This document shows positions 2,897 through 4,158 of a DNA stretch of 6,531 nt, piece after piece. The DNA is from a virus. Taxonomy: Duplodnaviria; Heunggongvirae; Uroviricota; Caudoviricetes. Location of the stretch: IMG/VR virus record IMGVR_UViG_2711768073_000021; one strand, written 5' to 3'. A program made the position numbers and the translations under genes. Under the pieces are notes generated by a model. It was not told where the DNA came from and ran no database searches. It saw only the letters and a program-made list of their open reading frames with translations. The stretch's first letter is position 1, and each line of letters begins with the position of its first letter.

Positions 2897-2968
2897 TGTA
2901 GTGGCACACTAAATTTGGCCACCTGATGAAAGGTGATATTCTCACCACAACACAAAACAGGTGACTTA

Positions 2969-3280
2969 ATGAACAAGAAAACCAAACGAACCTTCACCCC
3001 TGAGTTCAGGCTGGAATGTGCACAGCTGATTGTTGATAAGGGCTACTCATATCGACAGGCCAGTGAAGCGATGAATGTCGGTTCAACCACGCTTGAGAGC
3101 TGGGTACGCCAGCTCAGGCGAGAGCGCCAGGGTATTACGCCCTCTGCCACACCCATTACTCCAGACCAGCAACGTATCCGCGAGCTGGAAAAGCAAGTTC
3201 GCCGTCTGGAGGAACAAAATACGATATTAAAAAAGGCTACCGCGCTCTTAATGTCCGACTCGCTGAACGGTTCACGATAG
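2969..3280 (+). CDS. IS3-family transposase OrfA (HTH DNA-binding plus leucine-zipper region)
   Basis: [50 protein letters not shown]...[18 protein letters not shown] closely resembles IS911 OrfA as recalled. AGGTG is 5 nt upstream of the ATG. The ORF-track GTG at 2933 is probably an over-extension. Confidence 0.85.
3229..3235 (+). other. Programmed -1 ribosomal frameshift heptamer A AAA AAG
   Basis: A_AAA_AAG is in the OrfA zero frame (codons AAA 3230..3232, AAG 3233..3235) near the OrfA 3' end, identical to the IS911 slippery motif. The downstream -1 frame is open into OrfB. Confidence 0.7.
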
Positions 3281-4146
3281 CCGCCAGACTAAGTGACAGC
3301 CACACGGTTGTCAGCCTGTGTTCTGCTCTGGAAATACACCGCAGCAGTTACCGGTACTGGCGAAAACGACGCGATACGGTTAATCCGGCACGAGTCAGGT
3401 TGTGCAGCGAAATACGCCGGGCGTGGAACCAAAGTCGGGGCTCTGCGGGCGCGCGCACTCTGGCTGAAATGCTGACTCAAAACGGCGTCCCGATGAGCCG
3501 TTACCGTGCCGGACGTCTGATGAAATATCTGAACCTGAGCAGTTGTCAGCCCGGAAAACATCAGTATAAAAATGCCCGTCAGGAGCATACCAGCCTGCCG
3601 AATCTGCTTGAGCGTCAGTTCGCAGTACCGGAGCCAGACCGGGTATGGTGTGGAGATATTACGTATCTCTGGGCAGGAAATCGCTGGTGCTATCTGGCGG
3701 TTGTTATGGATCTTTTTGCCCGCAGGGTTATCGGCTGGAGTCTGTCAGCGCATGCCGATACCGCACTGATAAGCAGTGCCCTGCGGATGGCCTATGAGAC
3801 GCGTGGCCAACCCCGGGATGTCGTGTTCCATAGCGACCAGGGAAGCCAGTATACAGGCCTTAAATATCAACAACTTCTCTGGCGTTGCAGAATAAATCAA
3901 AGCGTCAGTCGGCGGGGAAACTGCTGGGATAACAGCCCCATGGAACGCTTCTTCCGCAGTCTGAAAACAGAATGGGTGCCAACGAATGGTTACGCAGGCA
4001 AGGACGAGGCCCGGCAGCAAATTAATGATTACATATTGAACTACTACAACAGCGTCAGACCTCACCATTATAACGGTGGGCTGACGCCGGAAGAGTCAGA
4101 GAACAGATACCATTTTTACTGTAAAACCGTGGCCAATATTACTTGA
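3232..4146 (+). CDS. IS3-family transposase OrfB (DDE/rve catalytic domain), expressed as OrfAB fusion by -1 frameshift
   Basis: The -1 frame relative to OrfA is open from the slippery site. Translation has WCGDITY...HSDQGSQY...NSPMERFF, a D, D(35)E integrase-type catalytic triad arrangement. The ORF track lists only the internal ATG at 3400. Confidence 0.85.
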
Positions 4147-4158
4147 CCACTACAAGAC

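Follow-up and report, generated by a model that had tools for sequence, protein, structure and literature searches.

Did an insertion sequence carry the DNA invertase of this prophage away from the segment that it inverts, or does the sequence only give that appearance? The window, by which we mean the whole stretch of DNA that was analysed, is 6,531 nucleotides long. In it an IS3-family element has its left end in the baseplate gene ymfQ and its right end beside a crossover site of the invertase Pin. An earlier note on this DNA saw flanks without a clean target-site duplication and proposed that an IS-mediated rearrangement had brought the invertase to the ymfQ side. We think it quite probable that, beside a real and ordinary IS in ymfQ, the window contains a joint made in assembly that only looks like a rearrangement. 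For the IS, the analysis confirms its presence, both ends, its intactness and the truncation of ymfQ, all of them textbook features. The disagreement concerns what lies to the right of the element.

The source of the window is central to this question. It corresponds to positions 2-6532 of the draft scaffold CYGD01000038.1 (GCA_001284425.1), and 6,530 of the 6,531 bases are identical to the record. An exact match to the protein encoded by bases 1-552, which is truncated at the edge, led to this record. The one mismatch is at window position 4157, which is an A in the window and an N at contig position 4158. This N is the sole difference between window and record, and we read the joint between the IS and crossover site C as a 1-N scaffold join. 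The window is also a mosaic of two prophage lineages, and the switch between them falls exactly at that joint. Bases 1-4154 match the ypjA-type remnant lineage at 100%, a lineage whose own pin is 96.6% identical to the pin of the window. Bases 4158-6531 match at 100% a type of ssrA prophage that carries a 502-aa gene, and the constant region and ymfQ of that type are only 97.7% identical to those of the window. Each lineage's own counterpart of the other half of the window diverges by about 2-3%.

The element itself raises few difficulties. It occupies exactly 2897-4154 on the plus strand (1,258 bp), with the left inverted repeat starting at 2897 and the right one ending at 4154. Its ends are TGTAGTGG...CCACTACA, of the form TG...CA, and the terminal inverted repeats are imperfect, 20 of the 26 outermost bases matching. 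The first reading frame, orfA (2969-3280), has a Pfam match to HTH_Tnp_1 (E=8.8e-13), and orfB, which runs to 4146, matches rve/DDE (E=6.1e-27) as well as rve_3, rve_2 and HTH_21. Ahead of the orfA stop codon (3278-3280) there is a predicted -1 frameshift site of the A6G type, AAAAAAG at 3229-3235. Identical copies carry the PGAP label 'IS3 family transposase, programmed frameshift' (WP_085968792.1). Elements labelled as ISEc31 family are about 92-93% identical to the IS of the window. This is an already known kind of element, an unnamed close relative of ISEc31 and not an ISEc31 isoform.

It is also a common one. Of 5,426 finished E. coli genomes, 1,649 have matches with at least 80% coverage, at a median of 2 places per genome and a maximum of 17. 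Three independent copies that are 100% identical to the IS of the window carry exact 3-bp duplications: AAG in a P2-like prophage (L005) and AAC twice, in hyxR and in a GTPase gene (L036 and L038). These exact duplications confirm both ends of the element (2897 and 4154) and the length to be expected of a duplication. We considered a longer element and rejected it, as BLAST matches running 7-18 nt beyond 4154 are chance similarity of A-rich flanks and the three copies fix the end. The earlier note had described an IS3-family element at 2897-4154 with both frames open and a frameshift site present, and the inverted repeats, the located orfA, orfB and A6G, and the identical copies with duplications all agree with it. 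Its expectation of a 3-4 bp target duplication for the family agrees with the exact 3 bp at these copies, and its suggestion that the element may be mobile fits the fresh 3-bp duplications of identical copies at many loci. The element is an intact and probably active IS3-family IS.

One of the three copies deserves a separate remark. In NZ_CP026085.1 the same IS (5863-7120), the one with the AAG duplication, sits within the invertible tail-fibre region of the P2-like prophage, about 345 bp from the invertase-proximal site. That genome is labelled DH5alpha, yet its prophage content is unusual for K-12.

The left junction is equally firm. The truncated gene, ymfQ', lies at 2337-2896 on the minus strand and encodes a Mu gp48-like baseplate protein (Pfam Mu_Gp48). 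An uninterrupted ymfQ (L002) reads ...acgga|tgtaatcatcgtttgtcacgtccat at the insertion point, and comparison with it places the IS in codon 9, the start codon and 8 codons (MDVTNDDY) being lost. What remains of the gene still matches Mu_Gp48 from profile position 3 to 149 of 150. The bases TGTA with which the IS begins are by chance identical to the ymfQ bases that they displaced (region 2893-2909), so the Tyr-Ile codons are kept. An in-frame GTG inside the left inverted repeat then gives a 190-aa fusion ORF (2337-2909), which PGAP annotates as an intact YmfQ family protein (WP_024234338.1). The mechanically called ORF is longer still (2337-2948) and extends 17 codons into the IS. The earlier note was right that the IS cuts off the 5' end of ymfQ and that the left flank is GGA; its figure of about 17 codons is this run-on into the IS, and the actual loss is eight codons. 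Three finished E. coli genomes carry this junction with 100% identity, as do many drafts, and an index of public assemblies lists it in 91 blocks. This junction is both real and inherited.

Those three finished genomes, 602687 (NZ_CP189657.1), PS1Thumoskin9 (NZ_CP180607.1) and CD45 (NZ_CP182220.1), are the best guide to what the locus looks like when it is completely assembled. Their ymfQ::IS remnant sits at ssrA, and window bases 93-4154 are 99.98-100% identical to it, including the ymfQ/IS junction and the entire IS. To the right of the IS they have a truncated ypjA (IS_R-GTGTGAATTACC), and the flanks GGA and GTG form no duplication. The invertase gene is in its normal place, directly beside the invertible segment and on the far side from the IS. 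A simple insertion that survives in ymfQ would have left the reciprocal junction IS_R-GGA-ymfQ 5' end; we rejected it because that junction is absent from the 5,426 finished E. coli genomes. The truncated ypjA flank without a duplication means that in these relatives the copy no longer has its original right flank and that the upstream tail genes were lost at the IS, and we believe an IS-associated deletion removed those genes along with the rest of the prophage.

Such events do not seem to be confined to one locus. Strain 602687 has a second identical IS copy at its e14 locus (L181, NZ_CP189657.1, 9779-11036), between a tail-fibre assembly gene and a truncated e14 tail-terminator gene. Its flanks are GCG and AGG, again with no duplication, which argues that IS-associated deletions recur in the prophages of this strain. 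The earlier note had proposed searching for other copies of the IS, and that search returns both kinds: identical copies elsewhere with 3-bp duplications, and a ymfQ copy in the relatives that has none. Its wider claims divide along the same line. That the copy in ymfQ lacks a clean duplication holds for the relatives (GGA/GTG); the AGA that it compared with GGA at the window copy does not hold, the third base being N. That an IS-mediated rearrangement took place holds for the upstream tail genes lost in the relatives, and is not supported for the relocated invertase, which rests on the same N.

The case for an artefact depends on the right junction. At the joint (4155-4157) the record reads ...CCACTACA-AG-N-CTTCTCCC..., so that only AG was sequenced beyond the end of the IS. 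Of the two scaffold pieces, the left one reaches only 2 nt beyond the IS, and the right one opens at 4158 (CTTCTCCCAAACC...) with a base that is conserved among all cassette states. Crossover site C, the invertase-proximal site (TTCTCCCAAACCAACGTTTATGAAAA), follows at 4159-4184 on the plus strand, and pin, a serine DNA invertase of 184 aa, at 4239-4793 on the same strand; its Pfam matches are to Resolvase (E=8.6e-52) and HTH_7 (E=2.9e-14), and it is 100% identical to the allele of the ssrA prophages that carry the 502-aa gene. The end of a repeat and the start of a flipping segment are natural break points for a short-read assembler. We take the N to be a scaffold gap and not an ambiguous base. 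The third flanking base was never sequenced, which makes the comparison of GGA with AGA moot. The distance of 4 bp that the earlier note gave from the IS to site C likewise spans the scaffold N.

Searches of much larger collections point the same way. The IS/site-C joint is absent from the 5,426 finished E. coli genomes, GTDB representatives, IMG/VR and JGI metagenomes. Joined to the two ends of the invertible segment, site C would read ...TTTTGCCG|CTTCTCCC and ...GCCGAAC|CTTCTCCC. Across 132 crossover sites in IMG/VR the triplets on the variable side are CCG (42), AGC (41), AAC (17), CAC (17), TGG (6) and rarer others. AGA is found at none of the 132 and in none of the fetched E. coli loci, and the pattern of AGA followed by the site is absent from GTDB representatives and JGI metagenomes. 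These counts and absences are the reason for rejecting a natural cassette, one that starts TCT after the site, as the source of AGA. The AG after the IS does match the start of the right flank of the identical e14-locus copy in strain 602687 (IS_R-AGGGCCTTAAAG, beginning AGGGCC). The match is weak evidence, but filling the gap from pooled IS reads would produce just such bases.

A sister assembly, GCA_001283505.1 (L025), might appear to lend independent support to the joint. We rejected it as such because its own join also has an N (at 9028) and falls inside the IS: topologically it is the same join, from a tfa fragment to an arbitrary point in the interior of the element. At 12786-12815 of this contig the crossover site between the segment and the constant region is garbled by poly-T. 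Together the N join and the poly-T site indicate a systematic mis-assembly of the locus in the sequencing project concerned.

The left edge of the window tells a similar story. Here lies the Pin-invertible segment (113-2030, with genes on both strands), which holds two fibre C-terminal cassettes (113-552, plus strand; 1572-2030, minus strand; Pfam Collar/Caudo_TAP calls on the segment) and two convergent tail-fibre assembly genes (555-998, plus; 970-1575, minus). Two inverted 26-bp sites flank these alternative fibre C-termini. Site B (TTCTCCCAAACCAAGGTTTTCGAGAG) is at 2031-2056 on the plus strand, inside the tail-fibre gene 1572-2333 on the minus strand, and site A is at 86-111 on the minus strand, inverted relative to both B and C. 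The outer flank of site A is a fold-back artefact. Bases 1-112, site A among them, repeat the tail-fibre constant region at 2030-2141 perfectly in inverted form (112 nt, 100%), and position 1 of the window is the contig edge, where the record holds one further base that extends the repeat. The finished relatives have a single constant region only, and the contig of the sister assembly ends in the same fold-back after 68 nt. We read the fold-back as the assembler following reads of the other orientation state and not as a second constant region. Among near-identical genomes the invertible segment is found in either orientation, which is indirect evidence of inversion, and the fold-back would be another indirect sign that Pin is active.

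Two further observations concern the same crossover sites. The Pin-invertible segment (window 110-2032) has been deposited as 1.92-kb 'circular plasmids' in PLSDB (CP148528.1, NZ_CP148539.1 and NZ_CP148540.1). They come from single-cell cat isolates whose chromosomes, CP148531 and CP148535, hold the same prophage remnant, and the 'plasmids' are almost certainly an assembly-graph artefact of the flipping segment. The second is in the finished genome CP148297.1 (L022), where at 8756-12886 the block of IS, ymfQ' and constant region meets a P2-like cassette, the joint falling exactly at the crossover site. This cassette is a different one, and with it come P2-type tail genes and an invertase of 188 aa. 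Two prophages have here apparently undergone a site-specific exchange. Real inter-prophage exchanges at these crossover sites therefore do occur.

Putting the two halves together, the reading that we favour is as follows. The IS interrupts ymfQ at codon 9, and the prophage that carries it is a decayed one of the e14/SfV-like kind whose tail genes are of Mu type. Judging from relatives such as 602687, the element would be multi-copy in the source strain, and the left scaffold piece may have grown across the repeated IS up to the point where the flanks of its copies differ. The right piece would have stopped at heterogeneous sequence as Pin flips the adjoining segment in culture, and the flipping segment could equally have produced the fold-back at the left edge. 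The true neighbour of site C would then be the invertible segment, as it is in the relatives. Given scaffolding and an N rendered as A, neither AGA nor the 4-bp spacing, neither the missing duplication at this copy nor a moved invertase is established. This removes the basis for two claims of the earlier note: that the IS separates the invertase from the invertible segment, which depends on the N joint while pin lies beside the segment in the finished relatives, and that the element moved the invertase across to ymfQ, which depends on the same N and on a joint found in no searched collection.

There are points against this reading. A lone N could in principle be an ambiguous call within continuous sequence. 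In two assemblies, which may be close relatives, the pin contig is scaffolded to that end of the ymfQ block which carries the IS, with the same relative orientation in both, and this shared orientation could reflect real read-pair support for an IS within insert length of site C.

These points lead to the first alternative, that the topology of the scaffold is right and an unsequenced gap lies at the N. An IS-mediated inversion, or recombination between inverted IS copies, would then have placed the ymfQ'-IS block beside the invertase end of a second ssrA prophage. Besides the orientation scaffolded in two assemblies, the two sides of the joint do come from different prophage lineages, identical IS copies occur in or beside invertible tail-fibre segments elsewhere (L005, L181), and the copy without a duplication in the finished relatives indicates that IS-associated rearrangement happens in this lineage. 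We nevertheless consider it unlikely. There is an N at the joint, and the two pieces stop precisely where an assembler would be expected to break; the left contig edge folds back, which means that the assembler was already confused here; the sister scaffold makes its join at a biologically meaningless point inside the IS; and a 1.26-kb repeat is not spannable by read pairs. The arrangement is also in none of the finished E. coli genomes searched.

If the scaffold link were correct, the block of ymfQ', constant region and IS would lie between two crossover sites of a foreign invertase, in a three-site system flipped by Pin. We regard such a system as improbable. In it an active IS and a truncated baseplate gene would themselves be flipped by Pin, and its origin would be either IS-mediated or inter-prophage site-specific recombination.

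A second alternative dispenses with the IS as the agent. Pin itself might have exchanged half-sites between a site adjacent to the IS and the invertase-proximal site, so that A and C are the reciprocal products. Site A with a constant-region flank and site C with an IS flank are what reciprocal products would look like, and CP148297.1 provides a case in which this constant region and a P2-like cassette meet at the crossover site. Yet the constant-region flank of site A is the fold-back at the contig edge and the IS flank of site C is the scaffold N. The exchange also needs an IS 3 nt from a natural site, and no natural site has such a flank. In our opinion the chance of this is very small.

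In the last alternative ymfQ codon 9 was already fused to site C when the IS made a simple insertion there, and the duplication has since decayed (GGA...AGA). This is scarcely credible: two of the three flanking bases match, but the third is N, the same left junction occurs with a ypjA right flank, and a synthetic empty site (ymfQ codon 9/site C) has no genome match that spans the join. Several other models were also tried and rejected, namely replicative inversion, recombination between the IS copies of tandem ssrA prophages, a reciprocal exchange by Pin with a hypothetical site D, and tandem-inversion-duplication. Each could partly explain the layout. They needed either a natural AGA flank or a real second constant region, and with the N and the contig edge recognised there was no further need for any of them.

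Beyond pin, and outside the finding about the IS, the window holds a gene for a 502-aa hypothetical protein (5023-6531, minus strand), cargo at the end of the prophage beside ssrA. The protein has no Pfam or NCBIfam match and a weak PADLOC match to LmuA (E=0.007). The same slot holds McrA in e14 (L181) and Avs2 in the prophage with the uninterrupted ymfQ (L002). By analogy with these occupants of the slot, the gene may be an uncharacterised defence cargo.

What remains once the joint is set aside is routine prophage decay: a widespread IS3-family element in ymfQ, with IS-associated loss of the upstream tail genes documented in finished relatives. The N join, the N shown as A, and the fold-back around a flipping segment illustrate how windows from draft scaffolds can imitate mobile-element rearrangements. 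We believe the finding serves mainly as a caution for windows cut from draft scaffolds.

Each part of the locus has a counterpart among known systems. The element resembles the IS911-type IS3 family in its length of 1.26 kb, its TG...CA repeats, its orfA and orfB with an A6G -1 frameshift and its multiple copies in E. coli; nothing of note differs, and the window copy has no verifiable right flank. The inversion system resembles the P-region and Pin of e14 in K-12, of the Din family with Gin of Mu, Cin of P1 and Hin. Both have a serine invertase beside a 26-bp site, inverted sites that flank alternative fibre C-termini and assembly genes, and, on the far side of pin, a gene for defence or other cargo (McrA in e14). 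The prophage of the window differs from e14 in lying at ssrA and in its SfV/Mu-type baseplate genes, and the layout with a third site (A, B and C plus the IS) is not established. Compared with the three finished ymfQ::IS genomes, where the invertase is the 96.6% allele with a different cargo, the window has the IS followed by AG-N and a separate contig. This last arrangement has a counterpart too. Scaffolders insert Ns where read pairs link contigs, and false joins are possible (PMC5320598). The joint shares with the scaffold artefacts of SSPACE/GapFiller type (PMC5320598) a single N between pieces that end at repeat boundaries, a repeat filled from the reads of all its copies, and greedy, possibly false joins.
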